From an uncultured bacterium (GTDB lineage Bacteria; Verrucomicrobiota; Kiritimatiellia; RFP12; UBA1067): DNA of 64,000 nucleotides. Positions 2,779 to 14,183 of this stretch are shown piece by piece (position 1 is the first letter of the stretch; each line of letters starts with the position of its first letter). The DNA is taken from the NCBI GenBank assembly GCA_902799385.1, contig CADCAK010000001.1, positions 30,670 to 94,669 on the forward strand. Reading direction: 5' to 3'. A model generated the notes under the pieces. The model ran no database searches. It was not told where the DNA came from and worked only from the letters and a program-made list of their open reading frames with translations. Position numbers and translations under genes: made by a program.

Positions 2779-4035
2779 ATGATGAATAGCTCATATAGGA
2801 TGACTGAAGTTGGGCTTCTCCCTGAGGATTGGGATGCAAAGCGGTTTTCAGAGTGCTTCACTCTGGTTCGGAATAACACTTATGCTCGTGAGTGCCTGAC
2901 CGATCATCCCGGTTCGGTGGCGAATGTCCATTATGGAGACGTGCTGATCAAGTACGGAGCCGTTCTTGACTTCGCGAAGAATGCTGTGCCTTACCTTAAG
3001 TCCGATGTGAAACCGAATAAGGATATGCTGAGAGATGGGGATCTGGTCTTTGCCGATACGGCGGAGGACGAGGCGGTTGGTAAGGCTGTTGAGGTACAGG
3101 GGTTGAAGTCTCGCATGGCGGTTGCGGGATTACATACTGTCGCAAGCCGCCCTCATGATGGTTTGTTTGCGCAACGGTATCTTGGCTATTACATCAATTC
3201 TGCAGCTTACCACAACCAGTTGCTGCCTTTGATCACTGGCACGAAAGTTTCATCCGTTTCTAGGGCAGGTTTTCTGGCAACATACGTGGCCATACCGCCA
3301 AAGAGTGAGCAGCGGCGGATAGCGGGGGCGTTGTCGGATGTCGATGAGTTGATTTCGGCGTTGGGGAAACTCATTGAGAAAAAGCGCAACATCAAGACCG
3401 GCGCGATGCAAGAACTGCTCACCGGCAAAACCCGCCTCCCCGGCTTCGGTGGCAAGTGGGTGGAGAAGAGGTTGGGTGATTGGGGGATGCTTATTCGAGA
3501 AACAGAGAATCCTCTGGAGTTCCCTGATAAACTTTTTGTTGAATATAGTATGCCCGCTTTTGATGCGGGGAAGACACCACAAATAGTGATTGGCAAAAGC
3601 ATGTTAAGTAGTCGCACAAAGATACATGGTGAGGTTCTTTTATTCAACAAGCTAAATGTTCGACAGCGACGAATTTGGCATGTTGAATTATGCCCTGATA
3701 ATGCGATTTGCTCATCGGAGTTTCTACCTTACTATTCTGACACCATCGACCTTCGGCTGCTAGCTTATGCGCTTGACACAGAACAAAGTACTAAACATTT
3801 TATTGATGTGTCTAAAGGCACATCAAACAGCCAAAAACGCATATCTCCGCAAGAGTTTGAAGATTTTAGAGTGATGTTGCCCCCCACTCTCCCCGAGCAG
3901 CGCGCGATTGCGGCGGTGCTAACAGACATCGACGCGGAGATCGCGGCGCTTGAGGCCGACCGTGCGAAATACGAGCGCATCAAATCCGGCATGATGCAGG
4001 AACTGTTGACGGGCAAGACGAGATTGAAGCCATGA
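2779..4035 (+). CDS. hsdS: type I restriction-modification specificity subunit HsdS
   Basis: Two target-recognition halves, each ending in the conserved HsdS linker EQRRIA..L..D..I..L....K.(A)MQELLTGKTRL (present twice). Confidence 0.9.
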   Translation: MMNSSYRMTEVGLLPEDWDAKRFSECFTLVRNNTYARECLTDHPGSVANVHYGDVLIKYGAVLDFAKNAVPYLKSDVKPNKDMLRDGDLVFADTAEDEAVGKAVEVQGLKSRMAVAGLHTVASRPHDGLFAQRYLGYYINSAAYHNQLLPLITGTKVSSVSRAGFLATYVAIPPKSEQRRIAGALSDVDELISALGKLIEKKRNIKTGAMQELLTGKTRLPGFGGKWVEKRLGDWGMLIRETENPLEFPDKLFVEYSMPAFDAGKTPQIVIGKSMLSSRTKIHGEVLLFNKLNVRQRRIWHVELCPDNAICSSEFLPYYSDTIDLRLLAYALDTEQSTKHFIDVSKGTSNSQKRISPQEFEDFRVMLPPTLPEQRAIAAVLTDIDAEIAALEADRAKYERIKSGMMQELLTGKTRLKP

Positions 4036-5327
4036 TTGATGTGCAAAATAGCGAAGTGAGGCAGGAGGTGAAGCACCACATGGGGCGGCGGTGCTTCAAC
4101 TGGGATTATTCCTCACGCTGCATCTACATGATCACGACCACTCTTGCTGACAGGTCGCGGCCTGTTTTGGGGCAGGTTGTCGGCGAGGGCGAGGAATGGC
4201 GGGTCGAGCCGAGCGAGATTGGGCTGATTGTCGAGCAATGCTGGCGCGAGATTCCGCGGCAGTGGCCGGGGGTTGAGATAATCGAGAGCCAGCTGATGCC
4301 AGAGCACTTCCACGGCATTATCTTTGTGAAAGAGCAGCAGACGAAAAAGCTTGGCAATATCATCGGGAGCTTCAAGTCGAAAAGCACGAGCCGCGCAGGG
4401 GTGGTGGGGTTGTGGGCGCCTGGGTATGTTGACTTGATTCTCTTTCGCGCGGGGCAGCTTGAGAAGATGATCGCCTATATCCGCGATAACCCGCGGCGGC
4501 TTGGCATAAAGTTGACACACCCTGAGCTTTTCAAGGTAGCGCGAGATATTGAGATAGACTTGGGCACATACGCCCAAGCGCAGAACCGCGCGCGCCCAAG
4601 CGTAGGACATGCAAGTGGCGAAGCGCAGAACCGCCCGCGTCAAAGCGCAGAACCTAGCGTCGGTGTTATTCCCTCTTGGCGCGGCCCGTCTAAGGGCCAT
4701 TTTATGGCGATTGGCAGCCACTTTCTTTTGGCGCGGCCGATTATTTGCCAGATTCAATGCTCGCGCTCTTTCTTCGCCTACAAGCGCCGCCGGTTGCCGG
4801 GCGGTTGGCAAATCTGCCGCGATTCCGCCGGCAAGCCGATTGTTGAGAAATCAACGCCTGAATTCGAGGAAAAGGCGACCGCCGCCATGCGCGCGGCGGC
4901 GCAGGGCGCGGTATTGCTGAGCCCATGCATCAGCCATGGCGAGCGCGAGATCGCCCGCCGAGCCTTTGAGTCAGGGCACCGCGTGATAACATTGCAGAAC
5001 AAAGGCTTTTCGCCGCTCTACAAACCGGGCGGCAAGCTCTTCGAGACGTGCGCAGCGGGCAACTTGTTGATGCTCGCTCCGATTGGCTGGCCGTATGTGC
5101 CGGGCGAGAAAGCGATGACGCGCCATGAGGCGCAGGTCTTAAATCGCATTGCCCAGCTCATAGCCGATGACGGCGCGGTTGAAATCGACTACAAAGGCGT
5201 TGTGCTGAGCGGCATCGACGAGGCGGTTGCGCAAGCAGTGGCGGGGGTGGACTTCGCCGCACGCGGCGAGGAACTTGGGCGCACGCGCCCAAGCGCAGGA
5301 CAGAACCGCGCACGCGGCGAAATCTAG
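4032..5327 (+). CDS. RayT/IS200-like Y1 (HUH) transposase-domain protein with ~265-aa C-terminal extension
   Basis: N-terminal 165 aa match the COG1943/Y1_Tnp pattern: HuH motif (MPEHFHGIIFV) and catalytic Tyr region (LWAPGYVDLILF...IAYIRDNP). Start overlaps the hsdS stop (ATGA). The C-terminal region is non-repetitive and protein-like but unassigned; a DprA/SLOG-like Rossmann domain is possible but speculative. Confidence 0.55.
   Translation: MIDVQNSEVRQEVKHHMGRRCFNWDYSSRCIYMITTTLADRSRPVLGQVVGEGEEWRVEPSEIGLIVEQCWREIPRQWPGVEIIESQLMPEHFHGIIFVKEQQTKKLGNIIGSFKSKSTSRAGVVGLWAPGYVDLILFRAGQLEKMIAYIRDNPRRLGIKLTHPELFKVARDIEIDLGTYAQAQNRARPSVGHASGEAQNRPRQSAEPSVGVIPSWRGPSKGHFMAIGSHFLLARPIICQIQCSRSFFAYKRRRLPGGWQICRDSAGKPIVEKSTPEFEEKATAAMRAAAQGAVLLSPCISHGEREIARRAFESGHRVITLQNKGFSPLYKPGGKLFETCAAGNLLMLAPIGWPYVPGEKAMTRHEAQVLNRIAQLIADDGAVEIDYKGVVLSGIDEAVAQAVAGVDFAARGEELGRTRPSAGQNRARGEI
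4571..4659. repeat. REP-like GC-rich imperfect repeats (consensus CGCCCAAGCGCAGAACCGCGC), several copies
   Basis: Copies at 4571-4593, 4594-4607 (partial), 4618-4639 and 4641-4659, inside the 3' half of the RayT-like ORF. Confidence 0.6.
5286..5316. repeat. additional copy of the REP-like CGCCCAAGCGCAG(GAC)AGAACCGCGC repeat just upstream of hsdR
   Basis: Same motif as the 4571-4659 repeats. Confidence 0.55.
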
Positions 5328-5346
5328 GAAGGAAGGATCTAGGGAT

Positions 5347-8300
5347 ATGGAAAACAATAAGGTTGAAGGCGAGGTTTTGCGTCCGAGCGCGAGCGCTGGG
5401 GTTGCCCCCGAGCGAGCGGTTCAAGATCGCATCATTGAGCTTCTGAGAACAAAGCTTGGCTATGAGTATCTTGGCAATTTGTCGGAGCGCGAGAACACCT
5501 GTCTCGATAGGCAGGCGCTGAAGGAGTTTCTTGTCGGCAAGCAGAAGCTCGAGCCTGCATACGCCGACCGTGCAATAGCCGAGCTCGGGAAGCGCATGGC
5601 ATGCCCGAGTCAGGCCGACCTCTATAGCGTAAACAAAGAAGTGTATCTGACGCTCAGATACCCGATGCCGGTCGCCACCGAGCCGGGCAAGCCGATGAAA
5701 CAGGTTTATTTCATCGACTGGCAGCATCCGCTCGAAAACAACTTCTCCATAGCCGAGGAAGTGACGGTAAGACGGCAGATCGCGGCAAACGGCCATCGCC
5801 GGCCTGATGTCGTGATCTGGGTCAATGGCATTGCCCTTTGCGTGATCGAGCTAAAGAAGGCGAATGTGAGCGTGGCCGAGGGAATTCGCCAGAACTACCG
5901 CAATCAGCAAGAGGGGGAGATACCGGCGTTTTTTGCCGCGGCGCAGCTCTTGATGGCGGGCAATGAATCGGAAGGGCTCAAGTATGCGACTACGCTTACG
6001 CCCGAGAAGTACTGGTTGAAGTGGAAAGAGCCGTGTGGCAATCCGTGCGCAGCGCCGAGGTGGGGAAAGTCGGAGATAAAGCCGCTTGTCGATCGTCTGT
6101 TTGCGCAGATGCTCGACAAGGAGCGGTTGCTCGCCTTTATACACGATGGCGTTGTGTTTGACGGTGGCGTTAAGAAGGTGATGCGGCCCGCGCAGTTTTT
6201 CGCGCTGGAGGCGGCGAAGCCGCGTATCATGCGCAAGGAGTCGGGCATCATCTGGCATTCGCAGGGCTCGGGCAAGTCGCTTACGATGGTGTGGCTCGCG
6301 CAGTGGATCAAGGAGCATCGGTCTGATGCGCGGGTGGTGATAATCACCGACCGCGACGAACTCGACAAGCAGATCACAAACGGCTTCAAGGAGGCCGGCG
6401 AGAAGCCATATCGCGCGACAAGCGGCGCCGACTTGATAGCAACATTGAATGGGTCTCGCGAGCGGCTGATCACAACTTTGATTCACAAATTTGGCGCGAA
6501 CGGGCCAAAGGAGAAGCTTGATGCCCGAGAGCGCAGACTGCGGGGCGAAAGGTCGGTTGCGGTTTACCTGAAGGAACTTGCCGACAAGTTGCCGCCAGGT
6601 TTCAAGGCGAAGGGCGATATCTTTGTTTTCGTCGACGAGTGCCATCGTACGCAAGGCGGCGTGATGAATCTTGCCATGAAGAAGATCATGGGCCCGGACG
6701 TGATGCTGATCGGCTTTACGGGGACGCCGCTTCTTAAGAGCGAGAAAGGCGCGCTTACGAGCTATGCCAATTTTGGGCCGTTCATCCATACCTACAAATT
6801 CGACGAGGCGGTAGAAGATGGCGTCGTGCTTGATCTGCGCTACGAGGCGCGCGACATCGAGCAGAACCTTGCCGAAGACGTGACATTTGACTCAATCTTC
6901 GAGCGCAAAACCAAGAACCTTCTTCCCGCCAAGAAGGAAGAGTTGAAGAAGCGATGGGCGAGGATGCAGAATCTCTTTTCGGCGAAAGAGCGCGTACAGC
7001 GCATCGTCACCGACATCTGCATGGACATGGGGATCAAGCCCGCGCTGCGCGAAGGGTGGGGCAATGCAATGCTGGTTTGCGAGTCGGTTTACCAGGCCTA
7101 TCGTTTCTGGGCGATGTTCAGCGACGTGCTCTCGCCGCTCAAGGACAAATGCGCCGTTGTCACAAGCTACGGCGGCGACGAGCCCGGTCTTTCCGAGGCG
7201 TTCACCGGCGAGCAGCTTACGGAAGCCGAGTACAAGCACAGGATGAATCTTGCCATGCGCGGCGACAAGACACCAGAGGATTTCGAGGAGTGGGCGAAGA
7301 AGGAGTTTGTCGAACACCCGGCGAAGATGAAGCTGCTTATCGTGGTCGACAAGCTGCTGACCGGCTTTGACGCGCCGCCCGCAACCTATCTCTACATCGA
7401 CAAGAAGATGGAAGACCACAATCTCTTCCAGGCGATTTGCCGCGTCAACAGGCTCAACGGCGAAAAGAAACGCTATGGCTACATAATCGACTACAAGCAT
7501 CTTTTCGAAAGCATAAGGGGCGCGGTCGAAGACTACACCAACGGCGCGTTCAAGAACTTCGAAAAAGAAGATGTCGAGGGGCTCCTCAAGGGCCGGCTTG
7601 AAGAAGGTCGCAAGGCGCTTGAAGCGGCTCTTGAACGGTGCGATATTCTTTCGGAACCGGTACTGCCGCCGAAGGGTCTCGACGAATATTGCGATTACTT
7701 CCTCGCCAATGACGGGGATTTGCAGCAGCGTGAAGATTTCTACCAGGCTTGCATCGCCGCGGTAAGGGCTTGGAGCGACATCGCGCAGGAAACTGACGAG
7801 GCCGGCTACTCCCCCGCCGAGGCGGCTGCGCTAAAGGAGAAGGTGCGCAACTACGACATGCTGCGCGAGGCGATCATGAAGCGAGCCGGCGATTTCGTGG
7901 ACCTCAAGCTCTACGATGCCGAGATGCGATCGCTTCTCGACAATTTCGTCACGGCCAAGCATGCGTTGAAACTCGCCGACCTCGAGGAGCTTTCGTTTCT
8001 CGATCTGATAAAAATCGACAAAGACAACGGAGGTTCGGTTGATTCCGACGTTGAGTCCGATGTCGGCGGCGAGAGAGGTGTTGCCGAAACGCTTGTGGCT
8101 AACGTCAGACGCTACATCTTCAGAAAGAAAGAGACCAATCCAGCCGAGTACCGCAAGTTCTCGGAACGCATCAACAGGCTTCTCGAAGACTACCGCAAGG
8201 AGAAGATCGAATACGGAAAGCTACTCGCGGAAATCGCCAAGATGGGCAAAGAACTGAAAGGCGATTCGACTGCTGCCGATCCGCGGTTAGACACAGAGGC

Positions 8301-8544
8301 CAAGCGAAGCCTCTGCGACAACCTGGGCGGCGATGCTGACCTTGCGCTCAAGGTCTTCGAGGCCGTTGGCGCAAGCGCCAAGCCCGGCTTTCGGAGGAAT
8401 GCCATACGGCGCAGGAAAGTCGAGATGGCCATCGAGGACGCCTTGCAGGGAACTGATTTCAACCCGCTTGCCGTCTACCAGATAGTGGAACACCAAAGTG
8501 AGTTCGACGCAGACTCCTACATGAGCGATGACCCTTGGATGTAG
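5347..8544 (+). CDS. hsdR: type I restriction enzyme R subunit HsdR
   Basis: N-terminal PD-(D/E)xK nuclease region (VIELKKANVSVAEGIRQNYRNQ), SF2 helicase motif I (GSGKSLTMVWLAQ) and DEAH-like motif II (VFVDECHRTQ). Start chosen at M41 of the track ORF, with an AGGAAGGA RBS. Confidence 0.9.
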   Translation: MENNKVEGEVLRPSASAGVAPERAVQDRIIELLRTKLGYEYLGNLSERENTCLDRQALKEFLVGKQKLEPAYADRAIAELGKRMACPSQADLYSVNKEVYLTLRYPMPVATEPGKPMKQVYFIDWQHPLENNFSIAEEVTVRRQIAANGHRRPDVVIWVNGIALCVIELKKANVSVAEGIRQNYRNQQEGEIPAFFAAAQLLMAGNESEGLKYATTLTPEKYWLKWKEPCGNPCAAPRWGKSEIKPLVDRLFAQMLDKERLLAFIHDGVVFDGGVKKVMRPAQFFALEAAKPRIMRKESGIIWHSQGSGKSLTMVWLAQWIKEHRSDARVVIITDRDELDKQITNGFKEAGEKPYRATSGADLIATLNGSRERLITTLIHKFGANGPKEKLDARERRLRGERSVAVYLKELADKLPPGFKAKGDIFVFVDECHRTQGGVMNLAMKKIMGPDVMLIGFTGTPLLKSEKGALTSYANFGPFIHTYKFDEAVEDGVVLDLRYEARDIEQNLAEDVTFDSIFERKTKNLLPAKKEELKKRWARMQNLFSAKERVQRIVTDICMDMGIKPALREGWGNAMLVCESVYQAYRFWAMFSDVLSPLKDKCAVVTSYGGDEPGLSEAFTGEQLTEAEYKHRMNLAMRGDKTPEDFEEWAKKEFVEHPAKMKLLIVVDKLLTGFDAPPATYLYIDKKMEDHNLFQAICRVNRLNGEKKRYGYIIDYKHLFESIRGAVEDYTNGAFKNFEKEDVEGLLKGRLEEGRKALEAALERCDILSEPVLPPKGLDEYCDYFLANDGDLQQREDFYQACIAAVRAWSDIAQETDEAGYSPAEAAALKEKVRNYDMLREAIMKRAGDFVDLKLYDAEMRSLLDNFVTAKHALKLADLEELSFLDLIKIDKDNGGSVDSDVESDVGGERGVAETLVANVRRYIFRKKETNPAEYRKFSERINRLLEDYRKEKIEYGKLLAEIAKMGKELKGDSTAADPRLDTEAKRSLCDNLGGDADLALKVFEAVGASAKPGFRRNAIRRRKVEMAIEDALQGTDFNPLAVYQIVEHQSEFDADSYMSDDPWM

Positions 8545-8548
8545 TGTC

Positions 8549-9256
8549 ATGACTATTGCCGGAATACAGATTGAAGTCGAGCGAAAGAAGATCAAGCACA
8601 CGCATCTTGCCGTCTATCCGCCGGATGCTAGGGTACATGTCTCTGCGCCAGATGATCTTTCCGACCGCGATTTGAGAAGTTTTCTTGCATCCAAGATTGG
8701 CTGGATACGCGACCAGCGGAAGACTGTTCTTTGCCAGCCTCGCCAGGCGCGCCGGGAGTATGTGAGCGGAGAGAGCATTTATTGCCTTGGCCGCAGGTAT
8801 AAACTATTGGTTGTCGTGGAAGATCGTTATGCGACGGAAAAGATGACGTGGGGCGGCAACAAGCTGTCGTTGTACGTGCGGGAGGGCGCTTCACGAGGGC
8901 ATAAGGAGAGGATCGTCGAATCATGGCAGAAGGCGATGTTGGGTGAGTCTCTTGCGGGCAAGATGAAAGGATGGTGCAGAAAGTTGAAGCTTGCTCTTCC
9001 AGAAATCGAAATAAGAAAGATGAAGACCCGGTGGGCGAGTTGTCTTCAGAAACGCGGCAAGATCGTTTTCAACGCCGCGCTTGGAAGAGTGCCCGCAAGA
9101 TGCATTGAGTATGTGGTCGTACATGAGCTGACGCATTTCGAGGTGTCGAACCACTCCAGAGCGTTTGTAGAGCTTATGGACAGGCGATTGCCGCGCTGGA
9201 GGATCTTGCGGAAAGAACTTAATGATTTTATCGCCATGCCGATGGAGGAGGTATAA
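8549..9256 (+). CDS. DUF45/YgjP-like (M48/WLM-like) zinc metallo-hydrolase, commonly linked to hsdR
   Basis: C-terminal HExxH-containing motif IEYVVVHELTHFEVSNHSRAFVELM and the WASC motif (KTRWASC). Located immediately downstream of hsdR. Confidence 0.8.
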   Translation: MTIAGIQIEVERKKIKHTHLAVYPPDARVHVSAPDDLSDRDLRSFLASKIGWIRDQRKTVLCQPRQARREYVSGESIYCLGRRYKLLVVVEDRYATEKMTWGGNKLSLYVREGASRGHKERIVESWQKAMLGESLAGKMKGWCRKLKLALPEIEIRKMKTRWASCLQKRGKIVFNAALGRVPARCIEYVVVHELTHFEVSNHSRAFVELMDRRLPRWRILRKELNDFIAMPMEEV

Positions 9257-9257
9257 T

Positions 9258-10019
9258 ATGGCCAAGAAGCGGGAAAGCAATTTCAAGAAGAATGGAGTTT
9301 CAAGCGAACTCCTGCCGCGCGAGCAGATGGAGCGTGCGGCGAGTCCGCACGACCTAAAGGACGAGGCCGTTCTTGCGATACTGCTCAAGACAGGTGCGCC
9401 TGGCTGTGACGTCTTGGAACTCGCAAGGCGGCTCATCCGGGCGTTTGGTTGCATTCAAGACCTTGTAACCGCCGATTGGCGTACGCTGGTCGCAAAGATA
9501 TCCGACTACAACAAAAAGAACCCAGAAGCTCCCATCAAGGGTATTGGAAAAGTCAAGGCGCTTGAGCTGGCTGCAGCGTTTGAACTCGGGTATCGCCGTC
9601 TTCGCGTTAAGCCTGACGATCTCAAGAAGATGCGTGTCGCAACCGCAGACGACGCATACGAAGTGTTCAAGTTCATTGCCCAGGAGGGCGACGTTCTGGA
9701 GAACTTCTGGGTATTGCCTTTGACGGCGAAGCGAGTTCCGATCTGTGAGCCGATCAGAATTGCACGAGGGCAAGCCAACACGTCATATGTGATGCCGCGA
9801 GATGTCTTCCGAGAGGCCATCAAATGGGATGCCCACTGCATAATGGTGGCGCACAATCATCCAAGCGGAGACCACACTCCGTCAGAAGGCGACATCGAAA
9901 CGACGCGGCAGCTGATGGCGATGTCCAAAGACCTCGGCATTCCGCTTCTTGATCACTTGGTTGTCTCGTCCTTAGGCTATTCCTCGATACGAGACTACAT
10001 AAGGCGAGGCTCAGTCTAG
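9258..10019 (+). CDS. radC: RadC-like JAB/MPN domain protein
   Basis: JAMM motif HNHPSGDHTPSEGDIETTRQL....GIPLLDHLVV and an HhH-like N-terminus. GGAGGAGG RBS. Start at M13 of the track ORF. Confidence 0.85.
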   Translation: MAKKRESNFKKNGVSSELLPREQMERAASPHDLKDEAVLAILLKTGAPGCDVLELARRLIRAFGCIQDLVTADWRTLVAKISDYNKKNPEAPIKGIGKVKALELAAAFELGYRRLRVKPDDLKKMRVATADDAYEVFKFIAQEGDVLENFWVLPLTAKRVPICEPIRIARGQANTSYVMPRDVFREAIKWDAHCIMVAHNHPSGDHTPSEGDIETTRQLMAMSKDLGIPLLDHLVVSSLGYSSIRDYIRRGSV

Positions 10020-11249: not shown

Positions 11250-11492
11250 TTGCAATCCGTTTACAAGCAGTCGTACGAACTACAACGACCGATTGTTGCC
11301 GATATGTGCGCAAACGCCGATAACGTCAGCGAAGATGAATTGGCGCATTGTTTTGATCGCGTGCTGGACATTTCATATACAGACTACGGCATGAGGCTTT
11401 TCAACAAATTGTGCAGGGCTTTCAAAGCAAGATATCCAGTTTGTGTGACGGATTATATAAAAATCCAAAAGGAGATTTATGGGGACGATTAA
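11250..11492 (+). CDS. small hypothetical protein (80 aa from TTG; 62 aa if from ATG 11304)
   Basis: ORF with protein-like composition directly upstream of the AlbA_2 gene. No recognisable domain. Confidence 0.3.
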   Translation: MQSVYKQSYELQRPIVADMCANADNVSEDELAHCFDRVLDISYTDYGMRLFNKLCRAFKARYPVCVTDYIKIQKEIYGDD

Positions 11493-11631
11493 GAATGTCT
11501 TGTGCCCACTATCTGAAGGTCGGCAGATTGGCGGCGCGAGACAAGGCGTATCATCCGCGGTCGTAGGTCGATTGCCTGTCCGTGCGAGGATGGAATGTGG
11601 CATAATTTCGACAAAAGCGCAAGGAGTGGGG

Positions 11632-13134
11632 ATGAAGCGAGACGAAAACCAGACGGTCGAGTACAAGGAGTCCTGGCACGAGAAGTACCTGGAGTGGATC
11701 TGCGGCTACGCGAACGCCAAGGGCGGGACGCTGTACATCGGCATAGAGGACGGAACCAAGAAGCCCGTCGGCGTCAGGAATCCCAACAAGCTGATGGAGG
11801 ACATCCCCAACTCCATACGCAACACGATGGGCATCGTGGCCGACGTCGCTTTGCTCAAGAAGCAGGGCAAGGATGTTATACGTATTAAGGTTGCGGCAAG
11901 CGCCTTCCCCGTCAGCTATCAGGGACGCTTCCACTATCGGACGGGATCGGTCAAGATGCTGCTGACAGGCCCGGCCCTTACGCAGTTCCTGATGGAGAAG
12001 TCAGGACAGCAATGGGACTGCATATCATGCTTCGGAGGACATCGTGCGTCCGATTTCACTTTTATTGCGCTCAAGAACCTCTATGAAAAGGCGAGTGGGT
12101 CGAAATTGACAAAGGAGGACATGCTTTCCTTTGGCCTTGTCACAGAGGCGGGCGTCATGACCAATACTGGCGCGCTGCTGGCCGACGAGTCGCCGATTCG
12201 ACATTCCCGCGTTTTCTGCACACGCTGGAACGGACTCGACATGACGGCAGGCGTTATGGATGCTGCCGACGACCAGGAATATAGTGGCGGACTTCTACAG
12301 TTGCTCAAATATGCAGAGGACTTTGTCCGCCTCCACTCCCGCCGCGCGTGGCACAAGCGTCCGACAGACCGCGTGAACTTCCGCGAGTATCCCGAACGCT
12401 CTGTTCAGGAGATGCTCATCAACGGACTCGTTCACCGCGACTACCTTGAGACAGGTAGCGAAGTCCATGTTGATATCTTCGACGATCGAATGGAAATAAC
12501 CTCCCCAGGCGGTATGCCGGGCGACCGCAAGGTTCAGGAGTATCCGAACATTCGGCGGATTCCGTCGCGTCGCCGCAATAAGTGCCTTGCGGATATGTTT
12601 GAACGGCTCGATCTCATGGAACGCAAGGGCAGCGGGTTCAAGAAGCTCAACGAGGACTACGAGAAACTGTCGGTCAACCTTGGGAAACGCATGCCCGTCC
12701 TTGAGTCCGAGAGTGACTACTTTCGCGTTACACTGCCGAATCTTCTCTATGGATTCACAGACGAACAGCTCGTCGCAGCCGTCGACAACTCGTCATACGG
12801 AGTGCCGAAGAGTGAGACGCTATCACTCGCGACCCACCATGATACCCACCATGATGCCCACCATGATACCCACCATGATGTGTTGCCGCTTAAACCAAAT
12901 GAAACCAAGCTTTTGAAGGTGCTGTCATTACAAAGAGAACTCAGCGCCACCGACTTGCGTAAGGCTATGAAACTTAGGAATGCGCCGGACTTTAGAGAGC
13001 GCTATCTCCGGCCGCTTTCTCGCGACGGATACATTGAGTTCACATTGCCGAACGCTAAGAAATCCAAACTTCAGAAGTATCGGCTGACGGACAAAGGACG
13101 TGCCGCGCTGTCGGCAAATACGTATAAGTCATAA
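11632..13134 (+). CDS. AlbA_2 (Schlafen-like) + HATPase_c_4 ATP-binding transcriptional regulator-like protein
   Basis: N-terminal AlbA_2 motif ESWHEKYLEWICGYANAKGGTLYIGIEDGTKKPVGV. C-terminal HATPase_c_4 region LINGLVHRDY..GSEVHVDIFDDRMEITSPGG. C-terminal HTH. AAGGAG RBS before ATG 11632. Confidence 0.8.
   Translation: MKRDENQTVEYKESWHEKYLEWICGYANAKGGTLYIGIEDGTKKPVGVRNPNKLMEDIPNSIRNTMGIVADVALLKKQGKDVIRIKVAASAFPVSYQGRFHYRTGSVKMLLTGPALTQFLMEKSGQQWDCISCFGGHRASDFTFIALKNLYEKASGSKLTKEDMLSFGLVTEAGVMTNTGALLADESPIRHSRVFCTRWNGLDMTAGVMDAADDQEYSGGLLQLLKYAEDFVRLHSRRAWHKRPTDRVNFREYPERSVQEMLINGLVHRDYLETGSEVHVDIFDDRMEITSPGGMPGDRKVQEYPNIRRIPSRRRNKCLADMFERLDLMERKGSGFKKLNEDYEKLSVNLGKRMPVLESESDYFRVTLPNLLYGFTDEQLVAAVDNSSYGVPKSETLSLATHHDTHHDAHHDTHHDVLPLKPNETKLLKVLSLQRELSATDLRKAMKLRNAPDFRERYLRPLSRDGYIEFTLPNAKKSKLQKYRLTDKGRAALSANTYKS
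12833..12880 (+). repeat. 4 x 12-bp tandem repeat (CCCACCATGATR) encoding a His-rich HHDTHHDAHHDTHHD tract inside the AlbA_2 gene
   Basis: Direct reading of sequence. In frame, near the C-terminus. Confidence 0.75.
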
Positions 13135-13996: not shown

Positions 13997-14045
13997 AAAG
14001 GAGAGATCGTGAAAAAGAATTTCATTTGGATTGTGAGGCGCACTG

Positions 14046-14183
14046 ATGGATGCTGATTTCTATCCGGAGGGATGGAGTGCGTTTGAAGACATGGGCGGCG
14101 ACGGCAAAGGAGACGCCGGTTGCGGATGCTTATTCCTGGTGGTCTTTTTGATTGGAATTCTGGTGGCATTGTTGAAGAAGTAG
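14046..14183 (+). CDS. candidate 45-aa small membrane peptide (acidic N-terminus, single C-terminal TM helix, KK terminus)
   Basis: ATG..TAG ORF MDADFYPEGWSAFEDMGGDGKGDAGCGCLFLVVFLIGILVALLKK. Not in the ORF track because it is <60 aa. Confidence 0.3.
   Translation: MDADFYPEGWSAFEDMGGDGKGDAGCGCLFLVVFLIGILVALLKK

Follow-up and report, generated by a model that had tools for sequence, protein, structure and literature searches.

RayT enzymes are the textbook example of a domesticated bacterial transposase, and the RPEs of Rickettsia are palindromic elements that lie in frame inside coding genes. The way in which the REPs linked to RayT are spread is still unknown (PMC8266576). In Marinomonas REPtrons, the REPs are clustered close to tnpAREP (PMC8266576), and in TnpAY1 subclass 2.4 they are inserted in frame between HuH and Y (PMC6006769). 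The MITEs of Coxiella are also palindromic elements found in frame inside coding genes (PMC5896051; reviewed in PMC3184786). The window analysed here, a whole stretch of 64,000 nt within which all positions are counted, contains a RayT-type nuclease fused to a DprA-type, predicted ssDNA-binding domain, a combination not described before, and nothing relevant on a RayT/HUH-DprA fusion was found in the literature searched. The fusion ORF (RayT-like HUH/DprA-like; 4032..5327, + strand) is complete and encodes 431 aa. A first-pass annotation had noted that the gene start overlaps the hsdS stop; the ORF is confirmed to be intact, and its ATG at 4032 overlaps the hsdS TGA (4033-4035) as ATGA. The 5' operon neighbour is hsdS, encoding the type I specificity subunit (2779..4035, + strand), and hsdR, encoding the type I restriction subunit (5347..8544, + strand), begins 19 nt beyond the end of the fusion ORF. 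A YgjP-like metallopeptidase (8528-9256) and RadC (9222-10019) are kept together with hsdR 3' of the fusion gene (8528..10019, + strand), giving the operon order hsdS - fusion gene - hsdR - YgjP - RadC. An Rfam search of 3800-5600 returned a chance lncRNA match only.

The N-terminal part of the protein is a Y1 HUH (RayT/IS200-type) nuclease domain (4080..4565, + strand; aa ~17-178). The HUH motif and RayT-like tyrosine region reported earlier were both located: PEHFHGII spans aa 90-97, with CAC TTC CAC at 4305-4313 and H92/H94 as the HUH histidines, and GYVDLILF and YIRDNP are both found in the protein. Y149 (4476-4478) is the catalytic tyrosine, and N153 (4488-4490) occupies the metal-ligand position; H92, H94, Y149 and N153 are invariant across 48 members of the family, down to 32% identity. 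The domain has the TnpAREP-type fold, with RayT/TnpAREP (e.g. E. coli YafM, PDB 4er8) as the top structural match, and it combines HUH with a single tyrosine and a Q/N ligand four residues on, as RayT does. The Y1 HUH fold and the HUH plus Y(x3)N set are thus shared with the RayT/TnpAREP REPtron (TnpAY1 class 2, Quentin et al. 2018, PMC6006769). A profile built from the 48 members matches ISDra2 TnpA (E 5e-5), with HUH aligned on HUH and Y149 on the catalytic Y132; the catalytic domain is therefore common to the IS200/IS605 TnpA proteins (IS608, ISDra2), for which recognition of ssDNA hairpins would be the expected mode. However, unlike REPtron enzymes, the fusion protein scores below the NCBIfam RayT cutoff (NF047646, REP_Tyr_transpos; 32.8 vs 80 bits). 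It also lies under the cutoff of Pfam PF01797 (Y1_Tnp; 15.8-18.7 vs 23 bits), a model that matches 29 of the 48 family members at E<=1 (best 3.2e-7). These scores count against the assignment to RayT that is preferred here.

Given this fold and these motifs, the gene could be an active IS200/IS605-type insertion sequence that landed by chance between hsdS and hsdR, and direct repeats with hairpins (D3, 4558/5273) do bracket part of it. Those repeats, however, lie within the ORF and enclose the C-terminal domain only, and the gene, unlike an IS200/IS605 element, has no left or right ends around it. In addition, there is no second copy of the fusion gene within the 64-kb window and no tnpB, and both halves of the protein are under strong purifying selection (omega 0.06-0.16). 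The fusion was found at full length in more than 100 homologues among the matches listed (48-91% identity), and in relatives the gene lies directly 5' of hsdR-YgjP-RadC, at the same insertion point, down to ~60% identity; the same fusion beside hsdR, looked for elsewhere, was therefore found with its gene order kept. Interruption of the ORF in relatives had been raised earlier as grounds for doubting the gene, and the ORF is intact there. The genomic context is identical across samples, and each relative examined has one fixed context; this housekeeping-like behaviour, with one fixed context per lineage, is shared with the REPtron. Searches for full-length matches returned none in 72,556 plasmids and none in 50,697 phages, on which a plasmid or phage origin was rejected. 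The fusion gene is chromosomal, stable and vertically inherited, is present in single copy within the 64-kb window and, unlike IS200/IS605 elements, appears neither mobile nor multicopy. Gene order and copy number led to rejection of the insertion sequence explanation, which is considered very improbable.

The C-terminal half of the protein, which distinguishes it from IS200/IS605 TnpA, contains a DprA-like Rossmann domain (4680..5240, + strand; aa 217-403). The domain described earlier as 'new' is of the DprA Rossmann type but divergent, and is DprA-like by fold only. It has the DprA Rossmann fold, and DprA is its best PDB sequence-profile match, although a weak one (E 0.15 over 50 residues). 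Its motifs are HFxAIGNxFLL..P..QVQCSRS, GAVLxSPCISxGEREIA, NKGF..YKPGG.LF..CA.GNLL.LAP and TR....LNRIAQ, and in the DprA profile alignment AIGNxFLL..P..QVQCSR pairs with CVGDTKLLDTPLKVAIIGTR. Pfam, NCBIfam and PADLOC gave no matches on the C-terminal half; Pfam DNA_processg_A (PF02481) did not match the domain at E<=10, and Pfam DprA matched 0/48 members at E<=1, which also weighs against the preferred assignment. In contrast to DprA/Smf (PF02481) and the DprA-like ShosA, the domain here is without SAM or winged-helix accessory domains, and, unlike DprA/Smf, it is found only as the C-terminal half of an HUH fusion. It matches at least 865 clusters (50% identity) at E<=1e-3, and the HUH domain was also present in 100/100 full-length cluster representatives; the two domains are obligately fused. 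No such 190-aa DprA-like domain was found for TnpAY1 subclasses in the literature searched.

The first-pass annotation had left two alternatives, a domesticated ssDNA transposase with an extra domain inside a restriction operon, or a RayT gene with a REP array behind it that is open by coincidence. In favour of the second alternative, stop codons are almost absent from the repeat units described below, whichever frame is read, and repeats by themselves could easily give a long open frame. Nevertheless, the 561-nt stretch between the repeat clusters, 4680-5240, contains 0 repeat units and has coding-type codon-position GC (0.61/0.48/0.73, compared with 0.60/0.37/0.72 in hsdR), with a GC3 of 0.73 like that of hsdR and an omega of 0.06-0.15; the linker (0.71/0.63/0.53) and the tail (0.82/0.64/0.71) are without the coding pattern. 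Together with the invariant residues, the confident fold and the 865 homologous clusters, these coding statistics bear out the earlier impression of an open frame over a non-repetitive, protein-like domain, and a short RayT gene with a non-coding array open by chance can be regarded as practically negligible and was rejected. The fusion, the selection and the gene order support the first alternative: the gene is genuine and conserved, and it encodes a domesticated RayT-type ssDNA transposase fused to a DprA-like domain in an R-M operon.

The repeats lie on either side of the DprA-like domain. At least five copies of a GC-rich motif had been reported in the 3' part of the gene; five were confirmed, although they are not part of the C-terminal domain, which they bracket from the linker (4559-4653) and the tail (5250-5324). 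A search for the exact 20-mer GCCCAAGCGCAGAACCGCGC gives a single match in the window (4572-4591), and the 21-nt consensus GCACGCGSCSAAGCGCAGRAC, with <=3 mismatches allowed, has five matches, at 4566, 4588, 4611, 4633 and 5281. Each of them is on the + strand and within the fusion gene, with four belonging to the linker and one to the tail; shuffling of the 64-kb window predicts 0.04 matches, and 0/100 shuffles reached five. The linker array (4559..4653, + strand) encodes disordered aa 177-208, with a pLDDT below 50 for aa 181-210. Its 5' part is a degenerate hairpin, CTTGGGC-acatac-GCCCAAG (4559-4578, + strand), followed by four tandem units of ~22 nt (4566, 4588, 4611 and 4633, + strand). 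The tail repeat (5250..5324, + strand) encodes the disordered C-terminal tail and contains a perfect hairpin, CTTGGGCG-cacg-CGCCCAAG (5274-5293, + strand), then CGCAGGAC (5294-5301), within an outer imperfect stem (5250-5265/5309-5324, + strand); the tail unit in full is written CTTGGGCG-CACG-CGCCCAAG-CGCAGAAC. The tail DNA folds at -23.4 kcal/mol (z -2.4 for the top strand, z -3.95 for the bottom strand). The hairpin is not named a terminator here, since a promoter/terminator scan gave nothing exceeding chance.

Across relatives, the unit is a 28-nt hairpin at the DNA level; its stem is 8 bp long, its loop reads CACG, and CGCAGRAC follows on the 3' side. In a census anchored on the loop and 3' octamer only, 39 units were found in 13 loci, and 8/8 stem pairs were formed in 27 of the 39. 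Changes on both sides were seen at 5/8 stem pairs; compensated cells numbered 31, vs 12.3 +/- 2.4 after shuffling (0/500 shuffles as high), and the stem covariation score was 0.325, vs 0.07-0.10 for slid partners. In a larger set of 28 loci there were 87 units, of which 55 lay in the fusion gene, 26 in hsdR, 4 in hsdM, 1 in YgjP and 1 in intergenic sequence, with more than 20 distinct stems whose pairing is compensated. Thus 86/87 units are intragenic. Inverted copies make up 12 of 86. Reading frames 0, 1 and 2 are used 8, 3 and 10 times, and 39/41 distinct units are stop-free in all six frames. Since one and the same DNA unit is translated in three frames, a peptide-level repeat was rejected; the earlier description of the motif as REP-like is supported, the motif being a hairpin that has compensatory stem changes and uses all three frames.

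The association of gene with short GC-rich hairpins, whose sequence varies by lineage, is common to this locus and the REPtron. REPs, however, number in the hundreds and are extragenic and genome-wide, whereas the units here are few, almost all intragenic and within their own operon. When 185,579 genomes and a metagenome collection were scanned, the two main hairpins turned up in 7 and 15 stretches, the loci from these pattern scans being biased to the two commonest stems and diverged units lying beyond the reach of the whole-genome scan. The fusion gene or the adjacent hsdR was contained in 21/22 of these stretches. The suspicion that the motif might be a genome-wide REP was rejected, as no further units occur in the 64 kb and only 22 stretches were found in the two large collections; the hairpin units are almost exclusive to the fusion gene and its operon neighbours. 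The 5' flank of the unit is only [AG]A, and the GT[AG]G foot of canonical REPs is not present; instead, the conserved octamer CGCAGRAC lies 3' of the stem; on the opposite strand it reads GTYCTGCG and precedes the stem. The units are also found inside the gene and the genes next to it and do not flank it, although distant family members have other hairpins of their own, on both sides of the gene as well as within it. The Rickettsia RPEs and Coxiella MITEs share with this locus the tolerance of short palindromes within ORFs as extra peptide segments, but at 28 nt the units here are far shorter, use three frames and are confined to one operon, which encodes the likely mobilising enzyme.

Relatives carry more units than the window does, at loop sites of the fusion gene and at 3-4 loop sites of hsdR. 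At 3-4 sites, hsdR copies of 94-96% identity differ in whether they have a unit, and the fusion gene in close relatives differs likewise; filled and empty hsdR sites differ by 15-120 nt. Sequence similar to the left half of a unit is already present at most of the 'empty' hsdR sites, which fits templated extension or deletion as well as transposition. Moreover, units are often in tandem with a period of 22-27 nt (window 4566-4653; 7 x 27 nt in locus L016). These half-unit sites, the tandem periods and the low, local copy number would all agree with a GC-rich minisatellite in disordered linkers, unrelated to the activity of the protein, that changes by slippage or gene conversion and reached hsdR through short-homology recombination. 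Slippage does not predict that more than 20 stem variants remain paired around a fixed loop and 3' octamer, and a minisatellite leaves unexplained the inverted copies, the new copies at separate sites in four genes together with the intergenic copy, and the unrelated hairpins in the same arrangement in distant family members. A minisatellite is accordingly thought rather unlikely.

In the Kiritimatiellae branch, co-location with hsd genes is constant, and the protein could instead be an accessory of the type I R-M system or a defence island (e.g. in ssDNA sensing or processing, or in modulating HsdR), with the hairpins as regulatory DNA or mRNA binding sites that are not mobile. However, this co-location is absent from the Victivallales-type and Muribaculaceae-type branches; other branches of the family have the gene in unrelated contexts that lack R-M genes nearby, after PFOR, beside uvrB and beside an MFS transporter. 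The fusion protein has no PADLOC match. In addition, the hsdR, hsdS and YgjP genes of the window have no hairpin units, and such sites are therefore dispensable for the operon. An accessory role of this kind is judged unlikely, though it retains some weight.

The explanation that is probably correct overall is that the protein is a predicted RayT-type Y1 HUH ssDNA transesterase joined to a DprA-type ssDNA-binding domain, with the hairpins as its putative cognate substrates, by analogy with REPs for RayT. On ssDNA, the HUH domain would recognise and bind the hairpin in its folded form, then cut and rejoin beside it through a 5'-phosphotyrosine link to Y149, while the DprA-like domain may hold the flanking ssDNA, dimerise the enzyme or recruit RecA. 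The RayT-DprA-type fusion suggests that the mechanism includes capture of ssDNA, dimerisation or recruitment of RecA. If the enzyme is mostly active near its own gene, units would consequently be copied into, or removed from, nearby DNA, and the surviving copies would be those in frame at surface loops, in the interdomain linker and in the C-terminal tail. Because the units are nearly stop-free and only in-frame copies would survive, the ORF would stay open while protein length varies among close relatives. The missing 5' GT[AG]G and the tiny, local copy number count against this explanation, and, since copy number differs in this way from that of classical REPs, slippage or gene conversion could instead be what spreads the units. 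A further and more speculative proposal, which is doubtful, is that the HUH-DprA enzyme works mainly in cis on ssDNA of its own operon and there writes and erases stop-free hairpin cassettes within coding sequence; the system would then be a self-contained, locus-restricted REPtron that remodels surface loops of its own protein and of the R-M subunits, perhaps also adjusting how strongly these are expressed.

The gene belongs to a large unannotated family that extends over gut and rumen Kiritimatiellae, Victivallales and Muribaculaceae, the C-terminal half of which has no Pfam model. As the units are few, private to the operon and in frame in coding sequence, their gains and losses can be read from alignments of close relatives. 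For annotation, these units would account for the odd low-complexity inserts (such as ARGEAQN, RTRPSAEP and SPHAAKRRT) through which the fusion proteins and the neighbouring HsdR vary in length.

The RayT-like gene lying between hsdS and hsdR is an uninterrupted ORF of 431 aa (4032-5327, + strand), the ATG of which overlaps the TGA of hsdS (2779-4035), as the first-pass annotation had read it. The hsdR gene starts at 5347, 19 nt past the stop codon, and is followed by YgjP-like and RadC genes. No promoter or terminator signals above chance were found between these genes, so the RayT-like gene reads as a member of the operon. The YgjP-like metallopeptidase and RadC genes (8528-10019) overlap each other and hsdR, and the three form a conserved trio in all Kiritimatiellae loci examined.

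The ORF encodes a single, genuine protein made up of two domains. A homologue search of 5.8 billion proteins returned 1,734 matches, the best 120 of which are full-length (356-527 aa, 48-91% identity), originate from Kiritimatiellae and Victivallales MAGs and carry no annotation beyond 'transposase' or 'RayT'. The homologue alignment contains two conserved blocks, with segments of variable length between and within them. Both blocks are confidently predicted in the AlphaFold model (mean pLDDT 69.5), in which pLDDT drops below 50 at residues 1-19, 181-210 and 408-431. The first-pass annotation had offered two alternatives, a domesticated transposase joined to a new domain inside a restriction operon, or a RayT gene followed by a REP array that stays open by chance. 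The former is borne out by the conservation of both blocks, pairwise dN/dS against five relatives being 0.09-0.16 in the N block and 0.06-0.15 in the C block. The latter is rejected on the same C-block dN/dS and on its coding-type codon-position GC (0.61/0.48/0.73), which matches that of the N-terminal block (0.57/0.38/0.73) and hsdR (0.60/0.37/0.72), a pattern absent from the linker and tail.

The HUH motif and RayT-like tyrosine region noticed at first pass are both present, as PEHFHGII (HUH at 4305-4313) and YIRDNP (Y149 at 4476-4478). A profile built from 48 diverse members of the family matches ISDra2 TnpA (E 5e-5), with MPDHxH placed on MPDHVH and Y149 on the catalytic Y132. Residues H92, H94, Y149 and N153 are invariant across the 48 sequences, down to 32% identity, and make up the HUH plus Y(x3)Q/N catalytic set known from Y1 enzymes, with roles assigned as established for IS608 and RayT. 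The window protein falls short of the curated cutoffs of NCBIfam REP_Tyr_transpos (32.8 bits against 80) and Pfam Y1_Tnp, and is thus a divergent relative rather than a model-defined RayT. The C-terminal domain has no match among Pfam, NCBIfam and PADLOC models; the best PDB sequence match of its profile is H. pylori DprA, which is weak (E 0.15) and has a coherent motif alignment (AIGNxFLL..P..QVQCSR vs CVGDTKLLDTPLKVAIIGTR). An exhaustive HMMER scan with this domain against 1.84 billion cluster representatives gave 865 clusters at E<=1e-3. Among the 149 representatives listed, the HUH domain is also present in 100 of the 100 long enough to judge, the remaining 49 being short fragments; the fusion is thus old and obligate. 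A second search, from a distant family member, extends the family to Muribaculaceae.

At least five copies of a GC-rich motif had been reported at first pass, and the 21-nt consensus GCACGCGSCSAAGCGCAGRAC (<=3 mismatches) has five matches, at 4566, 4588, 4611, 4633 and 5281, all on the + strand and within the RayT-like gene (0.04 expected), and none in the 64-kb window outside it. The copies do lie in the 3' part of the gene, but they fall into two clusters, one in the interdomain linker and one in the C-terminal tail, which flank the C-terminal domain and do not make it up. The variable protein segments ARGEAQN, (G)RTRPSAEP and SPHAAKRRT are one DNA in three frames, and the repeats are DNA hairpins rather than peptide repeats. 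Each unit consists of [AG]A, an 8-nt arm, CACG, a second 8-nt arm and CGCAGRAC. An anchor fixing only the loop and 3' octamer found 39 units in 13 loci, with 8/8 stem pairs in 27 and 7/8 in five, the others being tandem 'half units' in which the 5' arm is replaced by the tail of the preceding unit. Across 27 distinct sequences, five of eight stem pairs have changed on both sides, compensated cells number 31 vs 12.3 +/- 2.4 in shuffles (0/500 reaching the observed value), and the covariation score is 0.325 vs 0.07-0.10 with partners slid by 1-3 columns. The addition of 15 further loci gave 87 units in total; 71 of them form hairpins, whose paired stems come in more than 20 versions. That the frame stays open is explained by the units themselves, 39 of 41 distinct ones having a stop codon in none of the six frames.

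The window's copy in the tail (5274-5293, +) forms a perfect hairpin that is itself enclosed by an outer stem, and the first of its linker copies (+), CTTGGGC-acatac-GCCCAAG, is degenerate. In IS608 and REPs the guide or GTAG motif sits 5' of the stem; on the bottom strand of the unit the octamer, as GTYCTGCG, occupies this position, so the active strand could be either of the two. The native sequence coding for the WPYVPG loop (TGGCCGTATGTGCC, 5088-5101) shows 93% complementarity with the degenerate hairpin of the linker (4563-4576), and may descend from an old inverted unit that has since decayed; this loop is swapped for a hairpin unit in two relatives (loci L001 and L014).

This case is distinguished by the small number of its hairpins, their local occurrence and their position within genes. 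In loci centred on matches, 55 of the 87 units lie in the RayT-like gene (29 kb of DNA sampled), 26 in hsdR (49 kb), four in hsdM, one in YgjP and one between genes, just past a MoxR-like gene in locus L020; 74 are on the strand of the RayT-like gene and 12 on the opposite strand. Exact-pattern searching with the two most frequent hairpins, and thus for two stem variants only, gave seven stretches among 185,579 species-representative genomes and another 15 from a metagenome collection, and the RayT-like gene or its adjacent hsdR is present in 21 of these 22. On these counts, and with no match elsewhere in the 64-kb window, a genome-wide REP was rejected. In the fusion protein, units are inserted in loops or disordered parts, namely past residue ~123 between HuH and Y, in the linker, at the beta-turn after residue 256, in loop 350-357 and in the tail. 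Among HsdR proteins of 94-96% identity, units are present or absent at 3-4 sites, with zero units in the window HsdR. Turnover is thus recent and bidirectional; one site (A) is filled in five relatives and cleanly empty in the window. Slippage or gene conversion, with no involvement of the enzyme, would account for the arrays in tandem and for empty sites that resemble half units, but seems quite unlikely as the source of the repeats, since it leaves unexplained why stems are compensated, why new sites are dispersed over four genes and why distant relatives show a parallel arrangement. In L001, where HsdR is 94% identical to that of the window, hsdR, YgjP and hsdM carry in-frame units (12186-12300, 12734-12790, 14022-14060, 15204, 3600-3754), and the added protein segments include GGGDFAARGGELGRTRPSAGQNP.

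Distant members of Muribaculaceae type have unrelated hairpins, GTA-TTGCRAG...CTYGCAA, before, inside and after their gene (5887-5953, 7036-7102 and 9019 in locus L024; 5951, 6417 and 7045 in L029), so the gene-hairpin association is family-wide and the hairpin sequence lineage-specific, as in REPtrons. The motif GCAATACACCGACAYSCACC is also common to these distant members. The gene is best read as encoding a domesticated HUH enzyme of RayT type that carries a DprA-like, predicted ssDNA-binding domain and is accompanied by putative cognate hairpins; beyond fold and motif conservation, the steps are inference. The enzyme would bind the hairpin in ssDNA and cleave through Y149, possibly with a preference for acting in cis, and the DprA-like domain may serve in ssDNA capture, dimerisation or RecA recruitment. 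There is precedent for in-frame repeats in a nuclease gene in TnpAY1 subclass 2.4, where REPs lie in tnpAREP between HuH and Y (PMC6006769), and for repeats gathered round their gene in Marinomonas, where REPs are concentrated around tnpAREP (PMC8266576). A DprA-like fusion of a RayT/HUH enzyme, a 3' octamer replacing the 5' GTAG, and units near-exclusively in the coding sequence of one operon were not found in the literature searched.

In the Kiritimatiellae branch the gene is always directly upstream of hsdR-YgjP-RadC, and the layout hsdM-hsdM-(RhuM/Fic)-hsdS-variable cargo-gene-hsdR is kept from 91% to ~60% identity. In other branches it follows PFOR or lies beside uvrB or an MFS transporter, each context being stable across samples, and the restriction link is thus lineage-specific. 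It is unlikely, although compatible with a domesticated enzyme acting on its hairpins, that the protein is a dedicated R-M or defence accessory, a role that the tight operon placement and ShosA-like fold would fit, but to which the lack of a general R-M placement in the family and of hairpins in the window's own hsd genes runs counter. The genomic behaviour of the family is that reported for RAYTs, which are housekeeping-like (PMC5581495), and is unlike that of an insertion sequence. An active IS was rejected given the stable contexts, the lack of a second copy in the 64-kb window and the lack of a full-length match to the fusion protein in plasmid and phage collections.

Upstream of hsdS lies a SPARTA-like short prokaryotic Argonaute system (9-2769), comprising a TIR-APAZ protein cut by the window start (PADLOC Aga_TIR-PNTD1-PNTD2, E 1.6e-86) and a short pAgo (pAgo_I, E 1.4e-186). 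Its GC is 0.38-0.44, that of hsdR ~0.57, and the system has the look of foreign defence cargo carried within the type I R-M operon. What occupies the position between hsdS and the RayT-like gene differs among relatives (L001 6912-9999, L012 1050-9951, L014 7713-9921), being three unknown ORFs, two KAP-family NTPases or a DUF2806/Abi_alpha protein, and the operon is apparently a hotspot of defence-gene exchange. A 551-aa ORF at 11479-13134 has a His/Asp-rich run (HHDTHHDAHHDTHHD) close to its C-terminus.
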